The notes: a model not told the origin generated them from the sequence alone. A stretch of 64,000 bases of DNA from a virus (IMGVR_UViG_3300012007_000011:155-64154); one strand, 5' to 3'; positions 3,059 to 51,982 are shown, counted from the stretch's first letter. A program made the numbers and translations.

Positions 3059-3604
3059 ATGGCAAAGATACATTATATCATAGGTGATGCAACACTTCCT
3101 ATTGAGACAGAAGCAGAGAACAGACTAATAGTTCATTGTTGCAATACGCTTGGTGCTTGGGGTGCGGGTTTTGTTGTTCCTCTTGGCAGACGTTATCCAT
3201 TGGCAAAAGAAAAGTATAAGAAGTTCATTGAGGAAAATAAGGGTAAATCCATTTTGGGTGAAGTGAACGAAGTACCTGTTGGGGAACATCTGTATGTTGA
3301 AAACCTTATTGGTCAGAGTTTTCTTTATAAGAAGCCAAATGGTGAAATACCTTGTAATTATATTGCAATTGAAACGGGTTTTCTCAACATAATAAGAAAA
3401 TGGTTTTCATATAACTCAACGATACACAAGGATAAGCAAAACTTTTCAATTCATATGCCACGTATAGGTTGTGGTCTTGCTGGTGGTGATTGGAAAACAA
3501 TTGAAGAAATTATATATAGAACATTCATTGATATTGCCGATGTGGATGTATATGTGTATGATTTAAAGGAACAAAAAGATACCATTTATGATAACAGAGG
3601 ATAA
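3059..3604 (+). CDS. Macro-domain protein (ADP-ribose binding/hydrolase fold)
   Basis: IIGDATLPIETEAENRLIVHCCNTLGAWGAGFV matches the macro-domain core GDIT..DAIVNAAN..L..GGGV; the later GCGLAGG motif matches; 181 aa is the right size. Confidence 0.5.
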   Translation: MAKIHYIIGDATLPIETEAENRLIVHCCNTLGAWGAGFVVPLGRRYPLAKEKYKKFIEENKGKSILGEVNEVPVGEHLYVENLIGQSFLYKKPNGEIPCNYIAIETGFLNIIRKWFSYNSTIHKDKQNFSIHMPRIGCGLAGGDWKTIEEIIYRTFIDIADVDVYVYDLKEQKDTIYDNRG

Positions 3605-3857: not shown

Positions 3858-5000
3858 ATGGCAAAAAAATTAACAACTGAAGAGTTTGTACAAAGAGCGA
3901 GAAAGGTACATGGTAATAAATACGATTATTCGAAAGTGGAGTACTTAAATAATAGGACAAAGGTATGTATAATTTGTCCCGAACATGGAGAGTTTTGGCA
4001 AACACCTGATAGTCATATGTCAGGGAATAAATGCCCAAAGTGTTCTGGAACCAAGAAATTAACAACAGAAGAATTTATAGAACAAGCAAGAAAGATTCAT
4101 GGAAATAAATATGATTATTCAAAAGTTGAATATATTAACAATCATAGCAAAGTATGCATCATATGTCCAGAACATGGAGAGTTTTGGCAAACACCAATAA
4201 ACCATTGTTCAAAAAATAATCATAATGGATGTCCAATATGTGCAAAAACAATAATTGGTAATAAATTAAGAAAAAATAATTCATGTTTTATTGAAAAAGC
4301 AAGAGAAGTACATGGTGATAAATATGATTATTCAAAGGTCGAATATATAAATAACAGAACAAAGGTTTGTATAATTTGTCCTAAACATGGAGAGTTTTGG
4401 CAAACACCTGTCAATCATTTAAAAGGTCATAATTGCCCTAAATGTATTGGAAGGGGTGCATATAAATTAACAACAGAAGAGTTTATTGAAAAAGCAAAAC
4501 AAATACATGGTGATAAATATGACTACTCAAAGGTCAAATATGTAAATGCAAAAACCAAAGTTTGTATAATCTGTCCGGAACATGGAGAGTTTTGGCAAAC
4601 ACCAACCAGTCATATTGATGGAAAATGTGGATGTCCAGATTGTAATAAATTATTCAATGAAAAGAAAATAGGCGTTTTTCTAAATGAAAATGGAATTAGA
4701 TATATAAAACAAAAAACATTTAAATGGTTAGGTAAATTAAGGTTGGATTATTATTTAGTAGATTATAATATAGCAATCGAATATCAAGGCGAACAACATT
4801 TTCACTCAGTAAAATATTTTGGTGGTAATAAAAGATTTATTGATAGAATAGAGAGAGATAAAAGAAAAAAAGAATTGTGTGATAAAAATAATGTAAAAAT
4901 ATTATATGTATCGTTTTATAAAAAACCAACATATGATGTTATAAATAATTTTAAAGATTTGTTATATGAAATTCAAAGAAATATTTACAGAAAATTATAG
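3858..5000 (+). CDS. homing-endonuclease-like protein: 4 tandem zinc-ribbon modules plus a Vsr/PD-(D/E)XK-like nuclease C-terminus
   Basis: Four ~48-aa repeats of KYDYSKVEY.NN.TKVCIICPEHGEFWQTP..H..G..CP.C; the C-terminus LDYYLVDYNIAIEYQGEQHF resembles the Vsr/DUF559 nuclease core. Paralogous to 33001..33996. Confidence 0.6.
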   Translation: MAKKLTTEEFVQRARKVHGNKYDYSKVEYLNNRTKVCIICPEHGEFWQTPDSHMSGNKCPKCSGTKKLTTEEFIEQARKIHGNKYDYSKVEYINNHSKVCIICPEHGEFWQTPINHCSKNNHNGCPICAKTIIGNKLRKNNSCFIEKAREVHGDKYDYSKVEYINNRTKVCIICPKHGEFWQTPVNHLKGHNCPKCIGRGAYKLTTEEFIEKAKQIHGDKYDYSKVKYVNAKTKVCIICPEHGEFWQTPTSHIDGKCGCPDCNKLFNEKKIGVFLNENGIRYIKQKTFKWLGKLRLDYYLVDYNIAIEYQGEQHFHSVKYFGGNKRFIDRIERDKRKKELCDKNNVKILYVSFYKKPTYDVINNFKDLLYEIQRNIYRKL

Positions 5001-6375
5001 CGTTAATTGGGATTTCCTATTAACAATATCGCCATTTTCAAAAATGGTTAATTTAGAACAAAACAAGGAGTGGCATAAGGAAGATTGTTGGAAACATACA
5101 GTACTGGTTACACAAGAAATGGAAAAATTACTTAAAAGAAATCTTATTGAGAGAGGTTCTGAGAATTGGGTTATGTGTATGGCTGCTGCCTTGTGTCACG
5201 ATTTGGGAAAGGCTGATACAACCAAATGGTCTGAGGAAAAAAATGATTGGACAACAAAGAATCATGGTGTTGTCGGTGAGAGGATTACACGTCATCTTTT
5301 CTATGATGAAAACATTGTTTTAAGGGAAAAGGTATGTTATATGGTACGTCACCATATGACACTTCATCATGTATATGACAAACCAGAGGAAACAAATAAA
5401 AGGTTGATAAAATTATCACATGGTATTGTTGAAATGAGATTTATGATTTTATTGAACATTGCAGATTCGTTAGGCTCATACAATGATATAGAAACTGAAG
5501 ATAGTATTTATGACAAAGAGATGAAACTTATTAACGATGTAAGTTGTCTGCGTTGTTATCAGAAACCTTATTCTTTTATTGATAAGTCGCAACTGATTAG
5601 GAATTTCATTGACTATACTGGTGAAGTTATAAACGATAGAAATGACTTTTGTGTTTATATTCTTTGTGGTTTTCCTGGTTGTGGTAAAAGTACGTATTAT
5701 AATATGTTTCTTAATTCAAAACCTATTATATCAAGAGATATAATTCGTGGTGAGTTAGGTATTGACGGTGCAACCACAACCAACGACAAAAAAGTTGTTG
5801 GTACAAGGGAAGAGGAAGATAAAGTATCTGAAATTTTTAATAAGAAAATGATTGAATATTGTGAAAATAAGGAAAGTTTTGTTCTTGACAATACTAATCT
5901 TAAATATCAATATCGTAAAGATTATCTGTTAAAAATAATGAAATATAATCCTAAAGTGAAGATTATATATATTGAAGCACCGAATTACATTAAGGACTGT
6001 ATTGACAGAAGAAAGGGTGAGATACCGAAGAGAGTCTATGACAGAATGGAGAATAATTTTGATTTTCCACAATTGTATGAATGTGATGAGTTAACAATTG
6101 TTAAACAAGTGACAATAGAACAAGACAATGTATTTGTGTTTAAAGGCGATTTTACACCTGATTTGATATGTAATACTAATACCGTTAATGGGCGTGATTA
6201 TATATCAAAAGTAAAAGTACTAAATGATTTGTACATAACAAGAGGCGCAATGATATTGGATGGCTATGAATGTTATGACAGTTGTGTCAAATATATGGAT
6301 GAATTAATCAGCACATATAAGAACATGTTTGACTATACCGAACTGTTTGGTGAAATACCCTTAAAAAATGATTAA
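4966..6375 (+). CDS. HD-phosphohydrolase fused to a T4-Pnk-like polynucleotide 5'-kinase
   Basis: N-terminus has H..HD (HTVLV...ALCHDLGKADT) plus further His clusters. C-terminus has Walker A GFPGCGKST, IISRDIIR, and VLDNTNL matching T4 Pnk GCPGSGKST...ISDTNLNPERR. The true start may be the ATG at 5044. Confidence 0.6.
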   Translation: MKFKEIFTENYSVNWDFLLTISPFSKMVNLEQNKEWHKEDCWKHTVLVTQEMEKLLKRNLIERGSENWVMCMAAALCHDLGKADTTKWSEEKNDWTTKNHGVVGERITRHLFYDENIVLREKVCYMVRHHMTLHHVYDKPEETNKRLIKLSHGIVEMRFMILLNIADSLGSYNDIETEDSIYDKEMKLINDVSCLRCYQKPYSFIDKSQLIRNFIDYTGEVINDRNDFCVYILCGFPGCGKSTYYNMFLNSKPIISRDIIRGELGIDGATTTNDKKVVGTREEEDKVSEIFNKKMIEYCENKESFVLDNTNLKYQYRKDYLLKIMKYNPKVKIIYIEAPNYIKDCIDRRKGEIPKRVYDRMENNFDFPQLYECDELTIVKQVTIEQDNVFVFKGDFTPDLICNTNTVNGRDYISKVKVLNDLYITRGAMILDGYECYDSCVKYMDELISTYKNMFDYTELFGEIPLKND

Positions 6376-6678: not shown

Positions 6679-6936
6679 ATGAAAGAAGAAAAATATAAAA
6701 GAGCCGTTGAGATAAAAGATAAAATTTACTCATTACAGAAAAACCTTGAAGACTTAAAAGGCGGCCATTGGGACAAAACCCGTATCGAACTTAAAACAGG
6801 TTATTCCGACATGGGAATGGATTTTACGGTTTCAACAACATTTGACGAGGAAATTGGATATAAAATTCGTGATTTTATAAATGACACGATTAACAGTAAA
6901 ATTGCTGAATTGGAAAATGAGTTTGAAAATTTATAG
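6679..6936 (+). CDS. hypothetical protein (85 aa, coiled-coil)
   Basis: ORF. Confidence 0.4.
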   Translation: MKEEKYKRAVEIKDKIYSLQKNLEDLKGGHWDKTRIELKTGYSDMGMDFTVSTTFDEEIGYKIRDFINDTINSKIAELENEFENL

Positions 6937-6943
6937 GTATTTT

Positions 6944-7783
6944 ATGGAAAAGATAGAAAAATGGATACCACAAGTGGGTGATACTGTTAGGTTAAAAGGT
7001 ACTGAAAAGCCATTGTATCATTTATGTGGAATAACAAATTATGGTATGTTTTCATTTGTACAAGAAATGGAAAATGGTATTGCTGGTGGTGAGGTTTCTG
7101 AATATAGTTTACTTAGGAACTATGAACTTGTGGAACGCCCACAAAAATTAGAGGATTTCTTAAATGATATGATAACAAAGCCAATTTTGGAAAATATGAA
7201 TAAAACAAGATTTGAAAAATTTGGGAATGTGATGATAGATTTGGAAACACTATCAACGCACAACAATGCTGCCATTATAGAGATTGGTGCTGTTGAGTTT
7301 AATAAATATACGGGTGAGGTTGGCGAGAAGTTCAATGTAATTATTGACCCAAAGGATTGGTGTAAAAATGATAGACACGTTGACGGTGAAACAATTCAGT
7401 GGTGGTTTAACCAGACAAATGAAGCAAGAAAAAGATTTACACGCAAAAATAATGCGTATGTTACACTTAAGCAAGCGTTATGGCAATTGAGATATTTCAT
7501 TATGGATTGTGACACTGTTGATGATGATAAAGATGTTGTTGTATGGGGAAACGGTGCAACAATGGACATTAGCATATTAGAAAGTGCATTCAATTATTTC
7601 GACATAGAAGTACCTTGGAAATTTTGGGCAGTGAATGATGTAAGAACTATTGTTGACCTTAATCCGTCAATTAAGAAGAATTGTGAATTTGATTGTGGTG
7701 TTCGGCATAGTGCTATTGCTGATTGTCTCTATCAGATAAAATATACAACAGATACCATAAAATCATTAAAACTGAAATCATGA
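6944..7783 (+). CDS. DEDDh-family 3'-5' exonuclease (DnaQ-like)
   Basis: MIDLETLS (Exo I D.E), a conserved acidic motif, and HSAIADC (Exo III H...D). Start taken at the first ATG after the upstream stop. Confidence 0.65.
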   Translation: MEKIEKWIPQVGDTVRLKGTEKPLYHLCGITNYGMFSFVQEMENGIAGGEVSEYSLLRNYELVERPQKLEDFLNDMITKPILENMNKTRFEKFGNVMIDLETLSTHNNAAIIEIGAVEFNKYTGEVGEKFNVIIDPKDWCKNDRHVDGETIQWWFNQTNEARKRFTRKNNAYVTLKQALWQLRYFIMDCDTVDDDKDVVVWGNGATMDISILESAFNYFDIEVPWKFWAVNDVRTIVDLNPSIKKNCEFDCGVRHSAIADCLYQIKYTTDTIKSLKLKS

Positions 7784-8800: not shown

Positions 8801-9658
8801 ATGAACAAGAAAAAATTGATAGACATTTTTAATATTGATAAACCCAACATTTGTTTTGTTGGTGATATACATGGTGAATTTAATTCACTGCAAGGTTTAA
8901 TGAAGAAAACAAATTTCAAAGATACTGCCTATATTGTGTGTGGTGATATTGGTTTTGGCTTTAATAAGAAAGAATATTATTCCAAAATCTTCAATAAACT
9001 GACAAAAACAGCCTCCAAACTTAATTGTGAATTTATTTTTATTAGGGGTAATCACGATGATAAGAAATATTTTGACAAACGTTTAATCAACAGAAAATGT
9101 TTTAAGACAATTCCTGATTATTCCGTCATACAGACACCTTTATATAATGTATTGTGTATTGGTGGTGCAATTTCAATTGACAGAACATATAGAAAATTGG
9201 TTTTAAAGGAAAATGCTTTGAAATATTCTATTTATCATGGTTGCACTCCCAATGAAGCTGAGAAGTTATGTCAGCAAGTATATTGGGATGATGAACCTTG
9301 TTACTATGATGAAGAGAAATTAACGCAATTAAAACTAAATAACATAAACATTGATATTGTTTGTACCCATACATGTCCGTCATTCACAAAACCCTTTGGA
9401 AAAGAAAATATTGGCTATTGGTTATCCAAAGATGAAAGCCTTGAACGTGATATTGACAATGAGCGTGAGGTAATGGATAAGGTTTATAATAAACTTAAAA
9501 CAGACGGTCACACCCTTGATATGTGGTTCTATGGACATTTTCATTATCATAACGTGCAATTTGTTGATAAGACTAAATTTGTAATGCTTGATATGTATCG
9601 TAACGGAAACTATGACATTTATGATGTTTACAATACAAAAGAAACTATTTATAATTGA
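8801..9658 (+). CDS. calcineurin-like metallophosphoesterase
   Basis: GDIHG, GDIGFG and GNHDD motifs in canonical order. Confidence 0.6.
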   Translation: MNKKKLIDIFNIDKPNICFVGDIHGEFNSLQGLMKKTNFKDTAYIVCGDIGFGFNKKEYYSKIFNKLTKTASKLNCEFIFIRGNHDDKKYFDKRLINRKCFKTIPDYSVIQTPLYNVLCIGGAISIDRTYRKLVLKENALKYSIYHGCTPNEAEKLCQQVYWDDEPCYYDEEKLTQLKLNNINIDIVCTHTCPSFTKPFGKENIGYWLSKDESLERDIDNEREVMDKVYNKLKTDGHTLDMWFYGHFHYHNVQFVDKTKFVMLDMYRNGNYDIYDVYNTKETIYN

Positions 9659-11795: not shown

Positions 11796-11894
11796 CAAAC
11801 AGAGGAAAGATTTGGGGCATATTGCAACCTCTTTAAAAATGCTAAAAAGTCCCATTTAATAAATTATTTGTTTAACTTTTTAAATATTGATTAA

Positions 11895-13079
11895 ATGGTA
11901 AAAAGAATTAGTGAGAATGGAAACAAACTCATTGCAAGCGAGTTTGTTAGTTTTGGACATCCCGACAAGATTGCTGACCAAATTGCTGATGCAATTGTTG
12001 ATAATTTTTTGGCACGTGATAAAAATGCACGTACAGGAATTGAAGTCTTGGTTAAGGATAATATTGTTGTCCTTGGTGGTGAGGTTAATTCAACAGCAAG
12101 TTTCGATTATGAAAAAATTGTTCGTTTTGTTTTTTCTGAACTTAATTTTCCGTCAAATCATCATTTGTCACCGGATGAAATTAAAATTATTAACTTGATT
12201 GGAAAACAGTCAGAGGAAATACATAGTGGTGTTGACAAGGTAGATGAAATTGGGGCAGGGGACCAGGGATTCATGGTTGGCTACGCTACAAATGAAACAA
12301 GTGTATATATGCCTCTTGGACATTACATTGCTAAGAAAATCTGTAATTATGTTGCAAATTGTAGTCAATTGGGTCCTGATACTAAATCACAAGTTATTAT
12401 AGAATATGATAGTAATAACAAGGCAATAGGTATTCATAGCATTCTTGTTTCCACTATGCACCAATGTTCTCTTGAAGTGTGTCGTGAACGTGTAACTAAC
12501 GCAATTATGAATAATTTGGTTGGTATTGATAAGGATATCTATGAAAAATTCATAAAGGATAAAAATGTTAGAGTTGATGTAAATCCTTGTGGTTCTTGGC
12601 AAATTGGCGGTCCGATTTCTGATTGTGGAATTACAGGACGAAAATTGGTGGTAGATTCCTATGGTGGTTATTGTAACGTTGGTGGTGGCAATTACAGTGG
12701 TAAGGATTTCTCAAAGGTTGACCGTTCAGGTGCATATATGGCACGTTATCTTGCAAAGAACATTGTTGCAAGTGGCTTCTGTGATACTTGCCGTGTTACC
12801 TTGTCGTATATGATTGGTGTTGCACAACCTTGTTCCGTTGAAATTGATGTCAATCGTAATTTTGACAAACTTCCACAATTGAAAAAATGGATTTTGGAGA
12901 ATATTGATTTAACTCCAAATGGAATTACAGAAAGATTGCGTCATGGTGTGCTTTTATATGATTGTTCAAAATACGGACATTTCGGTTTTAAAGACAAAAA
13001 AGACAAAGATGTAATAACACTTCAAGAAAGAAAGTGGGAAAATCTTGACCTTGTTGAAGACTTGAAACAATTTGTATAA
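11895..13079 (+). CDS. metK: S-adenosylmethionine synthetase
   Basis: EFVSFGHPDKIADQIADAIVD matches MetK ESVSEGHPDKIADQISDA; GAGDQGFMVGYA matches MetK GAGDQGLMFGYA; 394 aa. Confidence 0.85.
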   Translation: MVKRISENGNKLIASEFVSFGHPDKIADQIADAIVDNFLARDKNARTGIEVLVKDNIVVLGGEVNSTASFDYEKIVRFVFSELNFPSNHHLSPDEIKIINLIGKQSEEIHSGVDKVDEIGAGDQGFMVGYATNETSVYMPLGHYIAKKICNYVANCSQLGPDTKSQVIIEYDSNNKAIGIHSILVSTMHQCSLEVCRERVTNAIMNNLVGIDKDIYEKFIKDKNVRVDVNPCGSWQIGGPISDCGITGRKLVVDSYGGYCNVGGGNYSGKDFSKVDRSGAYMARYLAKNIVASGFCDTCRVTLSYMIGVAQPCSVEIDVNRNFDKLPQLKKWILENIDLTPNGITERLRHGVLLYDCSKYGHFGFKDKKDKDVITLQERKWENLDLVEDLKQFV

Positions 13080-13089
13080 TCATGTTGAA

Positions 13090-13127
13090 ATTAACCTCTG
13101 TTTTCTTTATGACAGAGGTTAATTTTC
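13090..13127 (+). terminator. rho-independent terminator
   Basis: TTAACCTCTGTC..GACAGAGGTTAA hairpin followed by TTTTCC, directly after metK. Confidence 0.65.
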
Positions 13128-13172
13128 CCTTTAAGATACTATTTATTTTTAAATATCTATTAATAAAATATT

Positions 13173-13511
13173 ATGGGAAAAATAGTGCATTTGAATGAAA
13201 GTGAATTGAAAAATATTATAGATGAAACAGTAAAAAAAGTGTTAAGTGAAGGAAAAACAAATTCATTTATTAATGAGGTTCGTAATTTCAATTCCATAAT
13301 AGATAAAACAAACAAGACCTTAAATGAAAGCAGCATTAACAGAATGTTGCAATGGCTGAAAAATTGTGACTGTGCTTTCATTAGTGCATTCAGGAATGAA
13401 TTGAAAGATGTTAGAGACATGAATGCGACTTATCTTGGACCTGACAATGAAAATCCGTGGCAATTGGAAAAGAATTTACCCATGAGGAAAATCGTCAGAA
13501 AAATAAGTTAA
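13173..13511 (+). CDS. hypothetical protein sharing the N-terminal motif with 9688..10170
   Basis: MGKIVHLNESELKNIIDETVKKVLSEGK versus MKQTIRLTESELRNLITKTVKRVLKENK. Confidence 0.45.
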   Translation: MGKIVHLNESELKNIIDETVKKVLSEGKTNSFINEVRNFNSIIDKTNKTLNESSINRMLQWLKNCDCAFISAFRNELKDVRDMNATYLGPDNENPWQLEKNLPMRKIVRKIS

Positions 13512-14119
13512 TGGTTGCTGAATTGTTACAATTAGGATATGGTGTTACAAAGGTAAAAGGTGTATATCCAGAAGGAATGACAGATGAAACATCAGAGGAA
13601 AGTTATTTGGTTGTCAATCGTAATGATGACAAGAACTTTTTGAATAACTTATTGCGTATTTCTGAATATTATAATCAAGATTCAATTTATTATAAAGAAA
13701 AGGGTAAAACAAAGGGTAATTTGATTGGCACTAATGATAACGGTTTCCCCGAATACCACCAAAAAGGTGAAGATAGTGAAATGAAAACCAGTACCGCTTC
13801 AAACTATATGTCAAGAATGGGTAATAAAGCGTTTTCTTTTGTTGGAAAGGATGCAGAAAAAGTAAATAACCGCAAAGAAGCAATGGATAGTATTGAAAAA
13901 AGTAGAGGTACTGATGATGAATGGAGACAAAGATATTGGCGTGACAATGACGGTACTTCATTTAGGGGACGTAAGGAAAACCGCAAAAATAAAATGTCTG
14001 AGGCTGTTAACTTTTGGAGAAACATGGTAGATGGCAAAATGATTATAAAAGAAGATATCCATCCATTGACAAGAAAAACAATGGGGGAGGCTTTGAGAAA
14101 AATGAGAAACAAGAAATGA
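13511..14119 (+). CDS. hypothetical protein (~202 aa)
   Basis: TAATG overlap with the upstream gene; start chosen at that ATG. Confidence 0.4.
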   Translation: MVAELLQLGYGVTKVKGVYPEGMTDETSEESYLVVNRNDDKNFLNNLLRISEYYNQDSIYYKEKGKTKGNLIGTNDNGFPEYHQKGEDSEMKTSTASNYMSRMGNKAFSFVGKDAEKVNNRKEAMDSIEKSRGTDDEWRQRYWRDNDGTSFRGRKENRKNKMSEAVNFWRNMVDGKMIIKEDIHPLTRKTMGEALRKMRNKK

Positions 14120-16543: not shown

Positions 16544-18055
16544 ATGAGAACAGTTTATTTAAAGAATTTTAGAAAGGGATTTGCTACAAACAGTAGTTCA
16601 ACTCATTCTGTCATATACCGTAATAAAGAGGATTTATTCAAAGATTTGGATATTTTTGAATTAAACTATTATGATAGATTTGACAATACGATTGCGGCTT
16701 CAAAAGAAGCAAAAATCAAGTATGTTGCAGCCAATATTATGTGGCATGACAAATTATATGAAATAATGTCGTTGTATTATCCACAGATGAATGAATACAA
16801 AGAACTTATCAAAGAAACCAAAAATAAAGAAACATTATATGGTGATGATGAAAAGTTTGGAATGTATGCAAGGGGTAGACTGTATTTCGGTAATAGTAAA
16901 TACTTGGAGGCAAGTATTGATTATCTTCGTAATGTTATAGATAATGACGATATAATCATAGTTGGTGGTTCTGATGAAACTGATTTTGTTTGGGAAACCA
17001 TTGAAGGACATAAAACATTACCGCAACCAGATGAAATAAATGACTACAATGATAACTGTAATATTGTTAAAAATGGAAATTATTGGGTTGGTTTTGGCTA
17101 TAATGGAAAAGTGAGATTTTCTAATAGTAACGATAAATGTATTCCGAGTTATCCGGAACTGATTGACTTGAAAATTACAAATCAGTGTGACCACGGATGT
17201 AATTTTTGCTACATGGATTCGAATATGCAAGGAAAACATGCAGATATTAATTTTCTTAAAAAAATCATTAGTAGATTGTCTTCAAATGACAGTAATACCT
17301 ATGACACACGTGTTGAATTTTCAATCGGTGGCGGTAATGTACTTTTGTATCCACATCTTGAAGAGTTGTTTAGTTTCATGAAGGAGAAAAGACATATCAT
17401 TAATACAACAATTAATGTTAAGGATTGTCAGAAAATCTTAAATGACTCTAACTTACTTAAAGTTTTTAAAAAATATGTCAATGGAATTGGTGTATCAGTA
17501 AATTCTGATGAAAACATTAACGATGTTAAAGAATTAAAGGAAAAATTGAATGACACAAGCAATTATCCTTATTACACTTATAAAGAGATTGTAATACATA
17601 TGATACCAGAACTTCTTGGCAGGGAAAAAACCAAAAATCTTTTGAAAAAACTTTATGATAATAATTTATATGACATACTTTTCCTTGGTTATAAGACAAA
17701 TGGACGTGGTGTGACACAAAAGCACAATAGGCTAACAAATGAAGATTTAAGTTATATTCTTGAAGATGCTTATAGTATAAATGTTGACACAACATTTGCG
17801 AATACATACAAAGATTGGCTGCAAAACAATTTTGATATTAAATATAGTATCACGTTTGATGAAGGCGAATATAGTATGTATATTGATGGCGTTACAGAAA
17901 ATGCTTACAAATCTTCTTATCAACTTGACAAACCATATAATCTGACTTGTACAACTATGAATTGGCAAGCAAAAAATAAAGAATGGTTCGAAGTAATAGA
18001 TGCATTCAAAAACATAAGAAAAGACAATGGTTTTGAAAATATAGAAAAAGAATAA
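16544..18055 (+). CDS. radical-SAM protein (503 aa) with a ~200-aa N-terminal extension
   Basis: CDHGCNFCY is a CX3CX2C radical-SAM cluster motif; Gly-rich IGGGNVLLYP SAM-binding motif. Confidence 0.6.
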   Translation: MRTVYLKNFRKGFATNSSSTHSVIYRNKEDLFKDLDIFELNYYDRFDNTIAASKEAKIKYVAANIMWHDKLYEIMSLYYPQMNEYKELIKETKNKETLYGDDEKFGMYARGRLYFGNSKYLEASIDYLRNVIDNDDIIIVGGSDETDFVWETIEGHKTLPQPDEINDYNDNCNIVKNGNYWVGFGYNGKVRFSNSNDKCIPSYPELIDLKITNQCDHGCNFCYMDSNMQGKHADINFLKKIISRLSSNDSNTYDTRVEFSIGGGNVLLYPHLEELFSFMKEKRHIINTTINVKDCQKILNDSNLLKVFKKYVNGIGVSVNSDENINDVKELKEKLNDTSNYPYYTYKEIVIHMIPELLGREKTKNLLKKLYDNNLYDILFLGYKTNGRGVTQKHNRLTNEDLSYILEDAYSINVDTTFANTYKDWLQNNFDIKYSITFDEGEYSMYIDGVTENAYKSSYQLDKPYNLTCTTMNWQAKNKEWFEVIDAFKNIRKDNGFENIEKE

Positions 18056-24049: not shown

Positions 24050-24361
24050 ATGATGAAAGAAAAACAGATTTCAGAATCAATACTTAAACTTAAGTTATTA
24101 AAAGAAAGGTTTAATGAGAGACAACGTATTCAAGAAAAAAGTAGAAATGATTTAAAAAGGTATGAAAATCTTGATAAACAATATCCAGAACATAAATATG
24201 TAGAAAATTATATAAGATACCTTGAACAAATTGTTTTTGAAAATAAGGTACTTCTTAATGCTTTGCAAAAACAGTGCCTTGATATTAAGAAAAAAATCAA
24301 AAAATTGAATAAGGAACAAAATATTAGAAACAATAAAAAGTTAGAAAAACATGACAAATAA
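24050..24361 (+). CDS. coiled-coil small protein (~103 aa)
   Basis: First ATG downstream of the promoter; the ORF-track start at 24026 is a TTG inside the -7 box. Confidence 0.45.
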   Translation: MMKEKQISESILKLKLLKERFNERQRIQEKSRNDLKRYENLDKQYPEHKYVENYIRYLEQIVFENKVLLNALQKQCLDIKKKIKKLNKEQNIRNNKKLEKHDK

Positions 24362-26126
24362 CATTTTTACAAAGAGTGATTCGTTCAAGAGTGAGTACTG
24401 TTGCAGTATCATCCGTGTGGGTGAAGTAAAACCAATTGAGGGTAAGGACAAAATTGGCTACACTCTTGTCAATGGTGAGACAATTGTGGTACGTAAAGAC
24501 CAAATTAAAGAAGGTGATGTTTTGCTTTATGCAAGCAATGAAACACAACTTGACAAGGATTTCCTTGGAGCAAACAATCTTTTTGAAAGTTCTTCATACC
24601 AACTTAATAGTAATGCAAATGAGATTGAACCTTATATTTTAAAGAATAAGGAACTTAAGGCAGAAGCAGAAAATCTTGAAAAGGTAATAAAGAAACTTTT
24701 TGTTTGTTCTAAGTTCTTGATTGGCTATGATAGTGCTGTTATTGCAGCAGGAGACAATGAGGAAGAGAAGAGTGAGTTGGAAACTCGTCTTAATAATTCA
24801 CGCAAGACAATAAGTAAGTATATAGGTGGTAGTTTTAATGAGGATAGCACACTAATAGACTATGTGACAACAGCACAGAAATATTGTGCTGAGAAGAAAA
24901 CACAACTTGATATTATTAAAAAAGAAATTGATGAAACCACTGCTTATATTCGTGGACATGTAGGATTTTTTAATAAGACTGGACGTGTCCGCTCAATTCG
25001 TCTTGGTGGTGTACAATCAATGGGTTATCTTTTCACTCTTGATGAACTTGCAAAGTATAATCCCAATGTCAAAAATATTTCTCTTAACCAATATGTTGGG
25101 GAGGATTTTGATACAATTGAAGACAAACTGTTTATCAAGGCATATGTTCCCTTTGTGCCTGAACGCAGACAAGTCTCAAAGGTGGAAAAGAGAAATAAGA
25201 AAATTGAACAGTTTGACCGTATGGTGAAAGGTGAGTTTTCTTTCCATTATGATACTGCACCACTTCCAAAGTGTATCGGAAGACTAAAGCCAAGTGATGT
25301 CGTAACAATAACAAGCAAGTTACATGGAACTTCAATTTGTATTGGTAAACTCCACGTTAAGACACCAATTAAACTTCCATTCTATAAGTGGATTTGGAAT
25401 AAGTTTGTTGACTTGACAGGACTTTTCAAGGCACATCGTATTACCGATTATGTTATTGATTACGGTAATGTCACTGCTTCACGTACAGTAATCAAAAACC
25501 AATATATCAATGAAAATGTCTCTGACGGATACTATGGTGTTGATGTATGGTCTGAGTATGGTAATCTCATTTATCCTTTCCTTTCTGAAGGAATGATTAT
25601 CTATGGTGAAATCATTGGTTATCTCACTGATAGTGATAAGATGATTCAGAAGAATTATGACTATGGCTGTAATAAGGGTAAAAACAAACTCATGATATAT
25701 CGTATCACTACAAATAATGAAGATGGAACGAAGCATGAGTGGAATGTAACAGAAGTTAAGGAATGGACTGAGAAACTTGTCAAAGACCATCCAGAAATTG
25801 CTGATAGAATCCATGTTATTGACTTGTTGTATCATGGCACACTTGCAGACCTTTATCCAAATATTTCTTATATGGACCATTGGCATGAAAATGTCCTTGA
25901 GGCATTGAGAAATGAAAAGGAACGTTTCAATATGGAGAAAAATGACCCAATCTGTAAGAATAAAGTTCCATTTGAGGGGGTCGTTCTAAGAATTGATAAT
26001 GATGAGTTTGCAGAAGCATTCAAACTTAAATGTGCAAAATTCCTTTCTAAAGAAAGAGAGGAAATTGACAAGGGAGAAGTTGATATGGAAATGCTTGATA
26101 ACTACGGAAATAATGAGGGAGTATAA
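24351..26126 (+). CDS. ATP-dependent RNA ligase (Rnl2-type nucleotidyltransferase) with an N-terminal tRNA-binding OB (Myf/Trbp111-like) domain
   Basis: N-terminal IIRVGEVKPIEGKDKIGYTLVNGETIVV matches the tRNA-binding-domain consensus (vG.v....HP.ADKL.v..vd.G....iv). Ligase motifs: I SKLHGTS (KxHGxN), III YGEIIG, IV FEGVVLR, V KLKCAKF. Confidence 0.6.
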   Translation: MTNNIFTKSDSFKSEYCCSIIRVGEVKPIEGKDKIGYTLVNGETIVVRKDQIKEGDVLLYASNETQLDKDFLGANNLFESSSYQLNSNANEIEPYILKNKELKAEAENLEKVIKKLFVCSKFLIGYDSAVIAAGDNEEEKSELETRLNNSRKTISKYIGGSFNEDSTLIDYVTTAQKYCAEKKTQLDIIKKEIDETTAYIRGHVGFFNKTGRVRSIRLGGVQSMGYLFTLDELAKYNPNVKNISLNQYVGEDFDTIEDKLFIKAYVPFVPERRQVSKVEKRNKKIEQFDRMVKGEFSFHYDTAPLPKCIGRLKPSDVVTITSKLHGTSICIGKLHVKTPIKLPFYKWIWNKFVDLTGLFKAHRITDYVIDYGNVTASRTVIKNQYINENVSDGYYGVDVWSEYGNLIYPFLSEGMIIYGEIIGYLTDSDKMIQKNYDYGCNKGKNKLMIYRITTNNEDGTKHEWNVTEVKEWTEKLVKDHPEIADRIHVIDLLYHGTLADLYPNISYMDHWHENVLEALRNEKERFNMEKNDPICKNKVPFEGVVLRIDNDEFAEAFKLKCAKFLSKEREEIDKGEVDMEMLDNYGNNEGV

Positions 26127-26469: not shown

Positions 26470-26964
26470 ATGGAAAAAGATTTGACAATAGTTTCTTCTA
26501 AAACCGCAAAAGAATTAAAAGACTTCGGTTTTGATATTATTTGTCCTAACTGTTATGGTGTGGCTGTAATGCATAATGGTGAATATCTTGGGTGTGATGA
26601 AGAATATGAACTTCGTGCCGAAGGACGTGGTGATGAAATCGAATACATCGACTACGGAATGCTATATAATATGTGGTTTAAGAATAATGATAAAGAAGAC
26701 CACGATGTATGTGCGGCACCAGATATTGAAATTGTAAGGAAATGGTTTAGAGATAAATATAGTATTCATATTACCGCAATGCCATATATAACTGTTGAAG
26801 GATGTTTTTGGCTATCTGAAGTTTACACTTATAATGATGTAATGTATAATAAATTGCCACTGACAACAATGGTATGTGAGACATATGAAGAAGCCATTGA
26901 AAAAGGTATTAATAAAACAGTAAATTATCTTAAAGAGAAAGAAAAAGAAGATGAAACATTATGA
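26470..26964 (+). CDS. hypothetical protein (164 aa)
   Basis: ORF after a TTTTGCAACTG promoter at ~26435. Confidence 0.45.
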   Translation: MEKDLTIVSSKTAKELKDFGFDIICPNCYGVAVMHNGEYLGCDEEYELRAEGRGDEIEYIDYGMLYNMWFKNNDKEDHDVCAAPDIEIVRKWFRDKYSIHITAMPYITVEGCFWLSEVYTYNDVMYNKLPLTTMVCETYEEAIEKGINKTVNYLKEKEKEDETL

Positions 26965-27631
26965 TTCAATACCACGCATTCAAGATGATGGAACACTTCT
27001 TGGTTGTGATATTTGGGCATTTAACAAACTTGACGGACAAAATTTTTGTGTTAACTATTCTCCAAAAACAAAGGAGTTTAAAAATTTTGGCAGCAGAACT
27101 GTAATGGTTGATGAGACTTCTGACCAATTTGGTGATACGGTTCGTTATTTTAAAACAAGTAATATTCCAGATACACTTAAAGAAATCATTAAACAAAATA
27201 GTGGTAAAGGAAAAATTTTCAAGGGGATAGATGAAATAACTTTTTATTTTGAGTGGTATGGAGAACATTCCTTTGCAGGTAGGCATGACGAAAATGATAC
27301 GATGCATCTTGCGTTGATTGATGTCTTTTTGAAAAAGAAAGGTTATATTGAACCAAAGGATTTTTATGAAATTTTCGGTCAGAATGACAATATAGAAACA
27401 CCAGACTTGATTTATCATGGAAAATTAACAAAGGAGTTTATCAATGATATTTGGAACAACGAGGTAGGAAATGAAAACGCCCAATATCCAAGTGTGAAAG
27501 AAGGTGTTGTTTGCCGTAATAGCCATTTGTTAAAGGGACAGAGAATGCCAAAGGTCAAATTTAAGACAAAATGGTGGATTGACAAACTCCATTCAATGTA
27601 TAGCGAGGAAGAATGTAAAAAATTAGAATAA
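26951..27631 (+). CDS. minimal ATP-dependent ligase (nucleotidyltransferase domain only, 226 aa)
   Basis: Motifs I NKLDGQN (KxDGxN), III EWYGEH, IV KEGVVCRN, V KVKFKTK. Confidence 0.55.
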   Translation: MKHYDSIPRIQDDGTLLGCDIWAFNKLDGQNFCVNYSPKTKEFKNFGSRTVMVDETSDQFGDTVRYFKTSNIPDTLKEIIKQNSGKGKIFKGIDEITFYFEWYGEHSFAGRHDENDTMHLALIDVFLKKKGYIEPKDFYEIFGQNDNIETPDLIYHGKLTKEFINDIWNNEVGNENAQYPSVKEGVVCRNSHLLKGQRMPKVKFKTKWWIDKLHSMYSEEECKKLE

Positions 27632-31043: not shown

Positions 31044-32966
31044 ATGGAAACAGGAACAATTATTAGTTTGGTATTGATTGCAGTTGCTGCAATAGTTGTA
31101 ATTGGAACTATTTGGGGGCTTCTTTCACGTTATCGGAGGTCTGCACCTGATGAGTTGCTGGTTGTCTTTGGTAAGGCGGGAAAGATGAAGACTGAAGATG
31201 GTAAGACAATTGTGACACCCTCAAAGATTATTCAAGGTGGTGGTGCATTTGTGTGGCCAATTATTCAAGACTTCAAGAAAATGTCAATGAAGCCTATTCA
31301 GATTAAGGTTAATGTTGACGGTATTGATTCACAGGCGATTCCTATGCATTTGCCAGTTGTATTGACTACTGCAATTTCGCAAGACAAACTTATTCAGCAA
31401 AATGCTGCAACACGTTTTTTGAGTGCTAACCCTGCCGAGGTTGAACGACAGATTTCTGAGATTTTGGTTGGTGAGACACGTGCTATCATGGCAACAATGC
31501 TTATTGAGGAAATCAATGCAGACCGTAACACATTCTTGGGTAAGGTCCGTGAATCACTTGAACAAGAGTTAACCAAGGTTGGTTATGAACTTACCAATAT
31601 TAACATTTCAGAAATTACGGATGATGCAGATTATATCCGCAATATGGGTAAGAAAGCAGCAACCAAGGCAAAGGCTAATGCTGAAGCAGATATTGCCGAG
31701 CAGACCAAGCAAGGTAATGTAAAGATTGCCAATACTCGCAAGGAAGAGGAAATTGCAGTATCACAAGCAGAGCGTGACAAGCAGATTAGTGTTAACCAAG
31801 CAAAGCAGGAACAAGAGGTAAAGGTTGCCGAGATTAACCGAGAAAAGGAAATCAAACTTGCAGAAGCCGATAAGGAGCGTGAGTCTGGTATTGCTCTCCA
31901 AGAGGCTGAAAAGGTAGCCAATATTGCAAGGGCTAATGCTGATGCAGAGTCTAAAAAGGCCGAATATGAAGCACTTCAGACAAAGAACATTGCAAAGGCA
32001 GAAGCCGATGCCGAAGCCGCACAGAATGAGGCAGAAGCACAAAAGCAAGTACGTATTGCCAAAGCAAAGCAGGAACAAGAGGCTGAGACTATTAAGGCAA
32101 CACAGGAAAAGGAAGCAAAGGCCGCTGAGTATGAATCAAACAAACGTCAGCGCAAGGCAGAACAGGACAAGTTGGCTGGTGTTGCAGAGCAGGAAGCAAA
32201 GATTGATGTTGCCAAGGCACGTGCCAAGGCAGGACAAGCAGAAGCAGATGCTGTAAAGGTATCAGAGACCGCAAAGGTAGAGGCAGAAATGTCAGTTGCA
32301 AAGACACGTCAAGAACGTCAGTTGGAGGTAAATCAAGCAGAGGCAAAGGCACAGGAAGCAAAACTGAGAGCAACTGAGATTGTACCGGCAGAGAAGGCAA
32401 AGGAAAAGGCTGTGATTTTCGCAGAAGCCACAAAGAAGAAGGCTGAATTGGAAGCAGAAGCAACAAAGGCTAAGATTCTTCGTGAAGCAGAGGCAGAAGC
32501 AGAGAAAATCCGTTTGGCTAAGAATGCAGAAGCAGAGGGTGAAAAGAACATCCTTATGGCACAGGCAGAAGGTAAGAGGGCATCATTACTTGCAGAAGCA
32601 GAAGCTGAGCAGCAAAAAGCACTTGCAGAAGCAATGGCGTTTGAATATATGATTAAGGCTTCTGGAAGCCCTGATATGGCTGTTCAGTGGAAGATGGTTG
32701 ACCAATACAAGGGTATTGCGGAAGCACAGGCACACGCACTTGAACATATCAATTTGGGTAATGTGACGGTATGGGGGTCCGAAAATACGGGAGCATCTTT
32801 TGCAAGTAGTTTTGTAAAGAATTTCGCCCCGGTTCTTGCAACAATTAATTCGGAAGTTAAAGACCAATTTAAAGATTTGTTTGGAATTGCTAAAAATAAA
32901 GAAGAGGTAAAAGCTGTTGAAGATAAAAGTAAAGAATCTGAGAATAATTTTGAAAATGTAGATTGA
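31044..32966 (+). CDS. flotillin-like SPFH (band-7) protein, YqiK-like
   Basis: N-terminal TM segment, SPFH domain (PDELLVVFGKAG...WPIIQDF...), then a ~350-aa Ala/Glu/Lys/Gln-rich coiled coil typical of flotillin/YqiK. Confidence 0.75.
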   Translation: METGTIISLVLIAVAAIVVIGTIWGLLSRYRRSAPDELLVVFGKAGKMKTEDGKTIVTPSKIIQGGGAFVWPIIQDFKKMSMKPIQIKVNVDGIDSQAIPMHLPVVLTTAISQDKLIQQNAATRFLSANPAEVERQISEILVGETRAIMATMLIEEINADRNTFLGKVRESLEQELTKVGYELTNINISEITDDADYIRNMGKKAATKAKANAEADIAEQTKQGNVKIANTRKEEEIAVSQAERDKQISVNQAKQEQEVKVAEINREKEIKLAEADKERESGIALQEAEKVANIARANADAESKKAEYEALQTKNIAKAEADAEAAQNEAEAQKQVRIAKAKQEQEAETIKATQEKEAKAAEYESNKRQRKAEQDKLAGVAEQEAKIDVAKARAKAGQAEADAVKVSETAKVEAEMSVAKTRQERQLEVNQAEAKAQEAKLRATEIVPAEKAKEKAVIFAEATKKKAELEAEATKAKILREAEAEAEKIRLAKNAEAEGEKNILMAQAEGKRASLLAEAEAEQQKALAEAMAFEYMIKASGSPDMAVQWKMVDQYKGIAEAQAHALEHINLGNVTVWGSENTGASFASSFVKNFAPVLATINSEVKDQFKDLFGIAKNKEEVKAVEDKSKESENNFENVD

Positions 32967-32986: not shown

Positions 32987-33021
32987 AAGATGGTGGACTA
33001 TTAGTGTATTCCACCATCTTT
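32987..33021. terminator. bidirectional terminator hairpin overlapping the 3' end of the - strand gene
   Basis: AAAGATGGTGGA..loop..TCCACCATCTTT. Confidence 0.4.
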
Positions 33022-33996
33022 CTTGTATTTAATGTCATATAACATTTCGTTTAAATCTGCATAATATGTGTGTTTATTTTTAAAAGTAGTTGGTACATTT
33101 TGGTCAGTGAAATAAAAAACATCAATACCATGTTCTTTGCATTGTTTAAATTTTAATTCATCTCGTTCTATTAATTCGTTAAATGTAAATATTTTTGTTT
33201 CTGTTGAAATGTTTGAAGAAAATGACGTTGCTTGAAAATGTTGTATTCCTTGACATTCAATTGCACTGTTATATTCCGGTAAATAAAAATCTAATTTCAT
33301 ATTAGTTTTATTTTTTAACCATTTAAACGTCTTTTCTTCAATAAAATATATTTTATTCTCTGACAAAAAATTAGATAAATATTTTTCAAGTTTTGATTTT
33401 TGACACTTTGGACAACCATTTCCTTGTAAATGTTTGTCTGGTGTTTGCCAAAACTCACCATGTTCTGGACATATGATACATACCTTTGTTTTGTTATTAA
33501 TATAATTTACGTTAGAATAATCATACAGGTTGTTATGTATATATTTTGCTTTCTCTATAAAAGTATTATTGTTTGAGGCTAATTTTTGTTTGTATTTTAT
33601 TTTTCCACATTCAGGACATCCGCAACCTCTGATATGTGAATTTGCTTCTTGCCAAAATTCACCATGTTCTGGACATATGATACAAACCTTTTTAGTGTTA
33701 TCAATATAGATTGTCTTAGAATAATCGTATTTGTTATTATGCACCCTTTGTGCTTCTTTAATAAAATCTTCATTTGTTTTGGTTAAACGCTTTTTATGGT
33801 TTTCGTATTTACATTTTCTACATCCTTTACCACTTAAATGGCAATTTGGCGTTTGCCAAAACTCTCCGTGTTCGGGACATATGATGCACACCTTTGTTTT
33901 ATTGTTAACATATTCCACCTTTGAATAATCATACTTGTCACCATGTACTTTTCTTGCATGTTCTATAAATTCCTCTGTTGTTACTCTTTGTTGCAT
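33001..33996 (-). CDS. homing-endonuclease-like protein: 3 zinc-ribbon modules plus a Vsr/PD-(D/E)XK-like C-terminus (paralogue of 3858..5000)
   Basis: The same repeat signature (YDYSKVEY.NN.TKVCIICPEHGEFWQ..H..G.GC..C) three times, and a C-terminal LDFYLPEYNSAIECQGIQHF. Start taken at the ATG at 33996 (the track start is a GTG at 34002). Confidence 0.6.
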   Translation of the reverse strand: MQQRVTTEEFIEHARKVHGDKYDYSKVEYVNNKTKVCIICPEHGEFWQTPNCHLSGKGCRKCKYENHKKRLTKTNEDFIKEAQRVHNNKYDYSKTIYIDNTKKVCIICPEHGEFWQEANSHIRGCGCPECGKIKYKQKLASNNNTFIEKAKYIHNNLYDYSNVNYINNKTKVCIICPEHGEFWQTPDKHLQGNGCPKCQKSKLEKYLSNFLSENKIYFIEEKTFKWLKNKTNMKLDFYLPEYNSAIECQGIQHFQATSFSSNISTETKIFTFNELIERDELKFKQCKEHGIDVFYFTDQNVPTTFKNKHTYYADLNEMLYDIKYKKDGGIH

Positions 33997-34003
33997 AATC
34001 ACA

Positions 34004-37373: not shown

Positions 37374-38183
37374 ATGGAAACATTAAAGGAAAAATGTCAA
37401 GAGTTAAGAGCAAAATATGATGTCAGTATGCCAAAGAAAACATACGCAATGGCAATGATTGATGGTAAGAACTTTTCACGTCTTATTAAAAACAAATATG
37501 AAAAACCATTTGATGATAAATTCATTAATATGATGAATGAAGTGGCAATTTATGTTTGCAAGAACGTACAAGGTTGCAAATTCGCATATACACAATCAGA
37601 TGAAATTACATTTGTTCTAACTGATTTTGAAAACGAAGAAACAAGTGCATATTTTGATTATCGTTTATGCAAAATGTTATCAATTATACCGTCACTTGCA
37701 ACGGCAAAGTTTAACCAATTGGTAACATTGAATCTGCTTGATACACCTTGTTCAACAGAAGACATGAAACAAATCATCAAACATATGTCGCTTGCACAAT
37801 TTGACTGCAAAGTGTGGAATACAGATAACTTTAATGATGTGTTTGCATATTTCCTTTGGAGGCAGATAGATTGTGTGAGAAATTCAAAACAACAAGCAGC
37901 ACAAACATATCTTTCGCATAAAGAACTTATGGGAAAACATACAGATGAACAAATTAGACTGTTGTTCGAAAAGAAAGGAATTGATTGGAACGAATATTCT
38001 GATGATAAAAAATACGGACGTTTCATATATAAGGAACAAATCGAAAAGCCATTACCAAATCATGAAGAGAATACATGTCTGAGAAATGTGTGGCTTGCGC
38101 ACGATGCGTTTGAATTATACGAAAGTGGTGGAAAACAAAGACTTTTGGAACTTGGTGTCATTCCGATTAAGATTATTGAATAA
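37374..38183 (+). CDS. Thg1-like protein (tRNA-His guanylyltransferase family 3'-5' nucleotidyltransferase)
   Basis: AMAMIDGKNFSRL matches Thg1 VVRIDGKKFHEFS. YEKPFDDKF matches FAKPNDENA. KFAYTQSDEITFVL matches ILAFGESDEYSFIL. The catalytic D (in IDG) and SDE acidic residues are conserved. Confidence 0.6.
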   Translation: METLKEKCQELRAKYDVSMPKKTYAMAMIDGKNFSRLIKNKYEKPFDDKFINMMNEVAIYVCKNVQGCKFAYTQSDEITFVLTDFENEETSAYFDYRLCKMLSIIPSLATAKFNQLVTLNLLDTPCSTEDMKQIIKHMSLAQFDCKVWNTDNFNDVFAYFLWRQIDCVRNSKQQAAQTYLSHKELMGKHTDEQIRLLFEKKGIDWNEYSDDKKYGRFIYKEQIEKPLPNHEENTCLRNVWLAHDAFELYESGGKQRLLELGVIPIKIIE

Positions 38184-51665: not shown

Positions 51666-51982
51666 TGGAAGATAAAATTTATCCTTTACAGAAATCTCAG
51701 GACAGAGATTTAAAGAAAAAATTCGATAATCTTCACGTTGAGATTGTTAACAAAGTTATTGATTTCTGTAAGGAAAACAATATACAGATTGATGAGTTCA
51801 ACATATATGCCGATGGTGTCAGAGAGAGTATTCCTTTTGGTAAATGGACTTCTGTCACCGATAGCAGTTTTAGAATGGATGAATCATTAAGCAATGAGAA
51901 CGGCAAAGATGTGTATAAAATGTCTGATAAAGAATATAAATTAGCAAAAATTAATCACAAACCATTTTTATTAAGTGTGTAA
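51665..51982 (+). CDS. hypothetical protein (105 aa)
   Basis: ORF. Confidence 0.4.
   Translation: MEDKIYPLQKSQDRDLKKKFDNLHVEIVNKVIDFCKENNIQIDEFNIYADGVRESIPFGKWTSVTDSSFRMDESLSNENGKDVYKMSDKEYKLAKINHKPFLLSV

Follow-up and report, generated by a model that had tools for sequence, protein, structure and literature searches.

A huge-phage member of the bacterial HD-Pnk family and its predicted role in nucleic acid end healing

Introduction

Near the start of a 64,000-nt stretch of viral DNA (the window), one open reading frame (ORF) appears to join an HD phosphohydrolase to a polynucleotide kinase. This raises the questions of whether such an arrangement represents a new kind of end-healing enzyme, which ends it would act on, and which ligases would seal them. 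The original prediction, made from this DNA alone, proposed a T4-Pnk-like 5'-kinase preceded by an unusual phosphoesterase and serving ligases of the neighboring genome. Here, we compare the protein and its gene neighborhood with those of other phages and of bacteria.

Results

A single ORF encodes an HD domain followed by a P-loop kinase

The HD-Pnk gene (4966..6375, + strand) is an ATG-initiated ORF of 469 amino acids with Pfam matches to HD and AAA_33. It lies in an AT-rich window (~31% GC) whose + strand carries almost all genes up to ~53 kb. At E ≤ 1e-3, a search of 5.8 billion proteins returned 168 homologues. Both domains occur in nearly all of these; none bears a name more specific than "predicted kinase," and some come from contigs as long as 354 kb. 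The ATG start at position 4966 is supported by the conservation of the N terminus, MKFK(D/E)(L/I)F, among the homologues. The AlphaFold2 model of the 469-residue protein (mean pLDDT 86.1, pTM 0.80) consists of a helical N-terminal half and a second half with an α/β P-loop fold. In the PHROGs collection, phrog_6931, listed as "unknown function," matches both domains (E 9e-24), and phrog_505, "polynucleotide kinase," matches the C-terminal half (E 1.2e-13). Together, the ORF, its motifs, the Pfam and PHROGs matches, and the two-domain homologues confirm that an HD plus kinase gene is present at this position, far beyond chance. When 25 kb of the window were compared with GenBank phages by megablast, no related genome was found, and the phage is thus known from metagenomes only.

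The predicted HD phosphoesterase module occupies residues 1-215 (4966..5610, + strand), with the Pfam HD profile (PF01966) aligned to residues 44-149 (E 8.6e-10, 39.4 bits, cut-off 22). Within the module, His-37, His-44, His-78–Asp-79 (nt 5197-5202), Lys-82, His-100, and Asp-167 are invariant, and His-130 is conserved in at least 90% of the sequences. The metal-binding set of the HD superfamily, H...HD...D, is conserved as His-44, His-78–Asp-79, and Asp-167, which, together with His-37 and His-100, are invariant across six phage and six bacterial sequences. The N-terminal HD domain with an HDLGKAD signature, as originally proposed, is borne out by the CHDLGKAD motif around His-78–Asp-79 and by the PF01966 match.

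The closest relative of the HD half is the HD domain of tRNA nucleotidyltransferases; PhnZ, PDE, and HD-GYP proteins are among the weaker matches. The resemblance to class II CCA- and A-adding enzymes is confined to this domain, as the region aligned with the TIGR02692, PRK10885, and 3wfo models is the HD domain only. The pol-β-type nucleotidyltransferase head is absent from the ORF, in which Pfam detects no PolyA_pol domain. A (p)ppGpp-type or non-catalytic HD domain, either of which the original prediction had held to be incompatible with its proposal, was rejected on the aligned residues and on the profile and fold comparisons.

The kinase half carries the catalytic residues of Pnk

The C-terminal part of the protein contains a predicted Pnk-type P-loop kinase module (residues 225-380; 5638..6105, + strand), of which residues 230-368 match Pfam AAA_33 (PF13671; E 8.8e-12, 46 bits, cut-off 27). 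This match and the sequences GFPGCGKST (235-243), IISRD (254-258), and VLDNTNL (306-312) agree with the kinase motifs named in the original prediction. The motif set comprises the P-loop (Gly-235 to Thr-243, nt 5668-5694), S256-R-D258-x-x-R261, D308-N-T-N311, and R348-R349. In a multiple alignment, Lys-241, Asp-258, Arg-261, and Arg-349 are invariant and coincide with Lys-15, Asp-35, Arg-38, and Arg-126 of the T4 enzyme, residues that Wang and Shuman reportedly found to be essential in 2002. Phage-clade members carry an insertion of ~15 residues at about positions 266-283. They also differ in the lid motif RxxxR, whose first arginine (Arg-371 in the Deinococcus radiodurans protein) corresponds to Cys-345 in the phage clade, which has R348-R349 instead.

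The same alignment gave 21% identity between T4 pseT and the kinase half, and pairwise BLASTP detected the P-loop alone (E 6e-4). The claim that the kinase matches T4 Pnk closely therefore holds for the motifs and the fold and fails for the overall sequence; as worded, it is overstated. The top PDB sequence match of the kinase half is not a Pnk; it is PSTK (E 8e-9, with a high compositional bias score of 12.7), which is the best Foldseek match as well, with Kti12 also among the matches. PSTK, Kti12, PFK-2, and Pnk belong to one clade of P-loop kinases that shares the D-x-T-N motif. We rejected an identification as PSTK or Kti12, enzymes that lack an HD domain and whose P-loop kinase is followed by a tRNA-binding domain at the C terminus.

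The protein belongs to the HD-Pnk family

We took the definition of the HD-Pnk family from PMC6097658 and PMC1997131, with Runella slithyformis HD-Pnk and D. radiodurans DRB0098 as members. DRB0098 is described as a PNKP whose HD phosphatase domain precedes the kinase (PMC1997131; Blasius et al. 2007). Its 5'-kinase activity was demonstrated on a 5'-OH DNA 25-mer and was lowered by the R371K substitution; 3'-phosphatase activity could not be attributed to the HD motif (PMC1997131, Blasius et al.). The gene is part of a radiation-induced "DNA repair" operon that includes DRB0099, a macro-like protein that binds ADP-ribose, and the ligase-like DRB0100 (PMC1997131).

In the window protein, too, one chain carries an HD domain at the N terminus and a P-loop Pnk at the C terminus. 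Its residues 24-377 align with residues 30-403 of DRB0098 (MP1 locus) at 21% identity (E 2e-13), an alignment that places His-78–Asp-79 opposite His-81–Asp-82 of DRB0098 and superimposes the two P-loops. A homologue from Chondrinema litorale bridges the pair, with 27% identity to the window protein (E 3e-32) and 26% to DRB0098 (E 4e-26). The catalytic residues expected of a Pnk, namely the P-loop lysine, the aspartate general base, and the arginines that bind the 5' end and the transition state, are present as Lys-241, Asp-258, Arg-261, and Arg-349, with Cys-345 as the exception. Because the architecture, the two-domain homology, and the catalytic residues agree, these comparisons support the assignment of the gene as a phage-borne member of the known HD-Pnk family.

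With the Runella and Deinococcus enzymes, the phage protein shares the two domains, their order, and the invariant catalytic residues of both modules. Association with a PF09414 ligase is also common to both groups, and in Deinococcus the surroundings further include an RNA ligase of the Rnl5 type and a protein with a macro fold. The phage protein is distinguished from bacterial HD-Pnk by its distance (21-27% identity), by an extra tail of ~90 residues, by the kinase insertion, and by Cys-345. The HD-Pnk architecture is already known from bacteria; the gene contributes a new member from a huge phage, without being a new kind of enzyme.

HD-Pnk differs from the other phage and bacterial end-healing enzymes

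In T4 Pnkp (PseT), the kinase is N-terminal and the phosphatase is a C-terminal HAD domain (DxDxT), whereas here the phosphatase module is an N-terminal HD domain. The reversal of domain order relative to T4 was correctly anticipated, and a T4-type assignment (N-terminal kinase and then a C-terminal HAD DxDxT domain) does not describe this ORF. A closer parallel is phage RM378 Pnkp (Blondal et al. 2005), described in PMC1997131 as the one viral HD-containing PNKP, in which a Pnk kinase is likewise joined to an HD-superfamily 3'-phosphohydrolase. According to the same description, the kinase comes first in viral PNKPs, and this sets RM378 Pnkp apart from the window protein, in which, as in DRB0098, HD precedes the kinase. 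The matches listed for the phage collection do not include RM378. A survey of jumbo phages reports that, in a few of them, the RNA-repair 3'-phosphatase is calcineurin-like or HD-like (PMC7824862).

Clostridium thermocellum Pnkp (Pnkp1), of the bacterial Hen1-Pnkp RNA repair system, carries a calcineurin-type metallophosphoesterase fused C-terminally to the kinase and followed by a ligase-like domain. In the window, by contrast, the metallophosphoesterase has a gene of its own (8801-9658), and what is fused to the kinase is an HD phosphoesterase. An assignment to this type, with kinase, metallophosphoesterase, and ligase-like domains in one polypeptide, was rejected, as the kinase domain alone matches.

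HD-Pnk is widespread in bacteria and recurs in large phages

Using a bacterial profile and one genome per species, we found HD-Pnk relatives in at least 549 bacterial species; the matches listed include Bacteroidota, Pseudomonadota, Cyanobacteriota, Chloroflexota, Actinomycetota, Planctomycetota, Acidobacteriota, Bacillota, and Myxococcota. A gene for a DRB0100-type ligase, a member of PF09414 (RNA_ligase), ends directly upstream of HD-Pnk in 77 of the best 80 bacterial loci, a set that does not include Runella. This ligase is a frequent companion of the family and not an obligatory one. No such ligase abuts the phage gene, which has a homing endonuclease at that position instead.

Eleven further viral contigs in IMG/VR encode relatives at 37-42% identity; six exceed 200 kb, and the largest measures 373 kb. 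Among GenBank phages, only an uncultured phage of 462 kb, which has no annotation, and the Pnk of a Clostridium phage passed a threshold of E ≤ 1e-5. At permissive thresholds, annotated phage proteins matching the kinase half are mostly named "polynucleotide kinase," and Campylobacter CP220-like phages contain weak homologues over both domains, annotated as "putative polyA polymerase" or "AAA family ATPase." The likeness of the HD half to that of CCA-adding enzymes is probably why the "polyA polymerase" label was given. Our data suggest that these proteins of cultured Campylobacter phages are misnamed under both labels.

The window encodes two RNA ligases and other nucleic acid and ADP-ribose enzymes

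Upstream of HD-Pnk lies a gene for a macro-domain protein of 181 amino acids (3059..3604, + strand), recognized through PDB phmmer searches and phrog_335. Its matches are BT1257 (2afc, E 5e-29), an SCO6735-type macrodomain (5e3b, E 2e-22), the ADP-ribose-1''-phosphate phosphatase Poa1p (6lfu, E 1.5e-10), and the macro domain of DarG (E 2e-9). An HNH/homing-endonuclease-like gene (3858..5000, + strand; phrog_559 HNH endonuclease, E 9e-85, and phrog_9084 homing endonuclease) separates the macro gene from HD-Pnk, whose start it overlaps by 35 nt. Downstream, also on the + strand, are genes for an Rv2179c-like DEDD 3'-5' exoribonuclease (6881..7783; Pfam PF16473, E 2.4e-48) and a calcineurin-like metallophosphoesterase (8801..9658; Pfam Metallophos, E 1e-13).

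The original prediction invoked ligases; RNA ligase genes are present in the window, 18-21 kb from HD-Pnk and not adjacent to it. The larger (24351..26126, + strand; 591 aa) was identified by Pfam and by phrog_968 RNA ligase (E 5e-39). It combines an N-terminal PHA02142-type OB fold with a C-terminal PF09414 nucleotidyltransferase domain, the same pair as in DraRnl/DRB0094. A match to DraRnl (E 3e-4), a weak one to TIGR02306 (E 6e-4), and one to NgrRnl in the PDB that covers the OB domain only (E 0.45) suggest an Rnl5/DraRnl-like architecture. We regard this enzyme as the probable sealing partner of HD-Pnk. The second candidate sealing enzyme is a small RNA-ligase-family protein (26951..27631, + strand; 226 aa; PF09414, Pfam E 3.3e-7). 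Orthology of the small ligase with DRB0100 was considered and rejected: BLASTP against DRB0100 and against the Chondrinema ligase was not significant, motif I (KLDGxN) alone aligned, and only the Pfam family is shared.

The window additionally encodes a Thg1-like enzyme (37374-38183, Pfam scan), an Fmt-like tRNA enzyme, four methyltransferases, and an SSB. Its 64,000 nt contain no tRNA genes, and the ORFs scanned by Pfam (at least about 130 aa) include no Tpt1, RtcB, or 2H phosphoesterase and no DNA ligase.

Related phages share an RNA-repair cassette

Four close relatives (L003, L005, L006, and L007), whose HD-Pnk proteins are 50-59% identical to that of the window, present the order IMPDH-like gene, large ligase (60-75% identity), macro domain (three of the four), HD-Pnk, exoribonuclease (three of four), and metallophosphoesterase (three of four). 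In all four, the large-ligase orthologue ends 1.0-2.7 kb upstream of HD-Pnk. In L003, L005, and L006, the gene immediately preceding HD-Pnk is that of the macro protein (58-70% identity to the window), and these three lack the homing endonuclease between the two genes. Compared with the order in its relatives, the window genome thus represents a rearranged version of a conserved cassette with a homing-endonuclease insertion.

The exoribonuclease adjoins HD-Pnk downstream in L003 and L007 and lies two genes downstream in L006; it accompanies HD-Pnk in one of the 11 more distant IMG/VR loci. The metallophosphoesterase is found downstream in L003, L006, and L007 and in the company of HD-Pnk in 9 of those 11 loci, making it the most widely conserved neighbor of phage HD-Pnk. 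One of the two ligases is near HD-Pnk in 8 of the 11, with the small ligase within 6 kb in 5. Where bacterial loci have an abutting DRB0100-type ligase, the phage enzyme is thus accompanied by phage-type RNA ligases, a BT1257-type macro domain, a DEDD exoribonuclease, and a metallophosphoesterase. The Deinococcus MP1 region gathers within 6 kb DraRnl (OB plus PF09414), HD-Pnk, a macro-fold PARG-type protein, and the DRB0100 ligase; its functional composition is the same as that of the phage cassette, and its parts other than HD-Pnk are non-orthologous.

Discussion

We consider it likely that HD-Pnk and the phage RNA ligases together heal and seal RNA ends as a counter-defense. The HD domain, a predicted metal-dependent phosphoesterase of the CCA-enzyme type, would convert 2',3'-cyclic-phosphate, 3'-phosphate, and 2'-phosphate ends to 3'-OH, and the P-loop kinase would transfer the γ-phosphate of an NTP to 5'-OH ends. 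Positive evidence for the phosphatase of HD-Pnk is said to have come, after the first Deinococcus work, from Munir and Shuman in 2017 and from Schmier and Shuman in 2018. Substrates with 2',3'>P and 5'-OH ends could be produced by metal-independent ribonucleases, for example host anticodon nucleases or ribotoxins. The healed 3'-OH and 5'-PO4 ends would then be joined by the ATP-dependent RNA ligases encoded at 24351-26126 and/or 26951-27631, restoring tRNA or other RNA during infection in a manner comparable with the action of T4 Pnkp and Rnl1 against PrrC. Because the separate metallophosphoesterase is the most conserved neighbor, 3'-end healing could be shared with, or performed by, that enzyme. 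Further points against this reading are the distance of the ligases from HD-Pnk in the window, the lack of tRNA genes there, the PSTK match of the kinase half, the replacement of the first lid arginine by Cys-345, and the failure of Blasius et al. to assign a 3'-phosphatase to the HD motif of DRB0098.

The characterized bacterial HD-Pnk members act on DNA besides RNA, an observation that runs counter to RNA repair as the sole role and makes DNA end healing its main rival. On that account, the phage enzyme would heal 3'-phosphate/5'-OH nicks or breaks in the phage genome for a DNA ligase, in keeping with what has been proposed for the HD-Pnk of D. radiodurans, an enzyme that adds to the resistance of this bacterium to radiation and mitomycin. 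As described above, DRB0098 phosphorylates a DNA oligonucleotide and is encoded in a radiation-induced "DNA repair" operon (PMC1997131), and the title of the paper on the Runella protein calls it a "DNA/RNA end-healing enzyme." The window itself contains many DNA-modification genes, four methyltransferases among them, as well as the SSB, and the macro neighbor matches DarG, a DNA ADP-ribosyl glycohydrolase. However, the linked ligases all belong to the RNA-ligase family PF09414 and none to the DNA-ligase families, the conserved downstream neighbor is an exoribonuclease-type DEDD enzyme, the HD half most resembles the HD domain of a tRNA-processing enzyme, and the ORFs scanned yielded no DNA ligase gene. 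We therefore judge DNA to be an unlikely primary substrate.

The resemblance to tRNA enzymes could also be taken at face value, with a PSTK/Kti12-like kinase and a CCA-like HD domain acting on one tRNA feature such as the 3'-terminal CCA, an aminoacyl group, or a modified nucleotide. The top matches of the kinase half by sequence and by Foldseek (PSTK in both cases), the appearance of Kti12, the tRNA nucleotidyltransferase as the closest relative of the HD half, and the Thg1-like and Fmt-like enzymes of the window are consistent with such a tRNA-specific enzyme, which we nonetheless hold to be highly improbable. We give equally little credence to a small-molecule counter-defense in which the HD domain degrades 2',3'-cyclic or other signaling nucleotides and the P-loop domain is a nucleoside or nucleotide kinase, altering nucleotide pools or signals. 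Nucleotide hydrolysis is common among HD domains, and PhnZ, PDE, and HD-GYP are among the weaker matches; Yakunin reportedly found in 2004 that the HD domain of a CCA-adding enzyme acts on 2',3'-cNMPs in vitro. A macro domain is encoded next to HD-Pnk, and enzymes that target nucleotides and NAD are numerous in jumbo phages (PMC7824862).

Counter-defense by RNA repair might have a further facet. A macro-fold protein accompanies HD-Pnk in two unrelated settings, each with an Rnl5-type ligase; the phage macro proteins are BT1257/Poa1p/DarG-like, and that of Deinococcus is a non-orthologous microbial-PARG-type protein. This recurrence raises the idea, rather doubtful at present, that macro, HD-Pnk, and ligase form a cassette for the repair of ends bearing NAD+-derived adducts. 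Host ART or NADase defense toxins might leave ADP-ribose on 5'- or 3'-phosphate ends or give rise to 2'-phosphate chemistry of the Tpt1 type; removal of the ADP-ribose would fall to the macro domain, resetting of the phosphates to HD-Pnk, and sealing of the break to the ligase. If correct, this would amount to a pathway that mends RNA or DNA ends carrying ADP-ribose, and no such pathway is known to have been described in phages.

These comparisons show that the HD-Pnk end-healing family, defined biochemically in bacteria, also has a widespread clade in huge phages, and they provide a predicted function for PHROG 6931. Phage HD-Pnk reveals no new enzymatic principle. The conserved phage RNA-repair cassette, consisting of an Rnl5-like ligase, a macro domain, HD-Pnk, an exoribonuclease, and a metallophosphoesterase, is a candidate module for countering host immunity that cleaves RNA, and it offers new enzymes for end healing and ligation.

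Finally, the protein ends in a C-terminal tail (residues 381-469; 6106..6372, + strand) that is restricted to a phage subclade. It comprises four short strands and two helices with a conserved LNDLKITRGAMILDGYDCYDSC core, and this clade-specific extension might recruit partner proteins.

Macro-fold Proteins Adjoining HD-Pnk

In these phages, the gene for HD-Pnk (an HD phosphoesterase joined to a P-loop kinase) is adjoined by a gene for a BT1257/Poa1p/DarG-like macro-domain protein, located in the window at 3059–3604 (+). In Deinococcus radiodurans, HD-Pnk is likewise adjoined by a macro-fold protein, in this case a microbial PARG of family PF10021 (28873–29730 of that locus). When we compared the phage macro protein with the D. 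radiodurans PF10021 protein, no similarity between the two was detectable. The independent recurrence of a macro-fold protein beside HD-Pnk hints at a functional link of ADP-ribose processing with end healing.

The macro and HD-Pnk genes are neighbors in the related phage loci; in the window, they are separated by the insertion of an HNH/homing-endonuclease-like gene (3858–5000, +), which overlaps the start of HD-Pnk by 35 nt. This gene has a paralogue at 33001–34002 (−), and both consist of repeats of a treble-clef zinc-finger module, KYDYSKVEY..CPEHGEFWQTP (DUF4379/DUF723).

HD-Pnk-like Genes in Other Phages

Homologues spanning both the HD and P-loop domains were also found in GenBank among cultured Campylobacter phages, for example in CP220 (NC_027997.1, 53629–54552), CP21 (HE815464.1), and CP20 (MK408758.1). 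These matches are weak, with 21–23% identity and E values of 3e-5 to 1e-2, and the genes are annotated as "putative polyA polymerase" or "AAA family ATPase." They are probably misannotated HD-Pnk-like enzymes, the "polyA polymerase" name being most likely traceable to an HD domain resembling that of CCA enzymes.

A more distant IMG/VR locus (IMGVR_UViG_3300021255_000114, 373 kb) is the only huge-phage locus carrying a small ligase of the bacterial DRB0100/Chondrinema type near HD-Pnk. This ligase (12565–13143, 31–41% identity) lies ∼5.4 kb downstream of HD-Pnk, and the phage-type large ligase is present too. Possibly, this locus represents a transitional form linking the bacterial type of cassette to the phage type.

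tRNA Repair and Exoribonuclease Genes

The window encodes a Thg1-like protein at 37374–38183 (+; PF04446, E 2.5e-25). Thg1 belongs to the tRNA-His guanylyltransferase/3′–5′ polymerase family, which repairs tRNA 5′ ends, thus adding one more tRNA-repair function to the same genome region.

The exoribonuclease ORF at 6881–7783 (+) encodes 300 amino acids compared with 196–212 in the relatives, is conserved only from approximately residue 107 onward, and overlaps the ORF at 6679–6936. Either its true start is an internal ATG (Met-97 or Met-106), or the protein carries an N-terminal extension of ∼100 residues in this phage.

SAM Metabolism and Other Cargo

A full-length match to the SAM-II riboswitch (Rfam RF01726) occupies 11796–11855 (+) and scores 46.4 bits, the gathering score being 44. 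The phage's own SAM synthetase gene, metK (11895–13079), lies 40 nt downstream of the riboswitch and is followed by an ORF of the SAM-lyase family (13457–14119, PF23780). The phage metK is apparently under the control of a phage-borne SAM-II riboswitch, with a SAM-degrading enzyme adjoining.

Two radical-SAM enzymes (16544–18055 and 47343–48497) and four DNA methyltransferases are also encoded. Further unusual cargo, located jointly at 55942–57676 (−), 51975–52595 (+), and 31044–32966 (+), comprises an Fmt-like formyltransferase (PF00551 and PF02911), a fragmentary ThyX-like match, a membrane protein of the formate/nitrite-transporter family, and a 640-residue SPFH/Band_7 protein. At ∼53 kb, gene orientation and GC/AT skew switch, with plus-strand genes before and minus-strand genes after this position, which is a divergence or convergence point of transcription modules.
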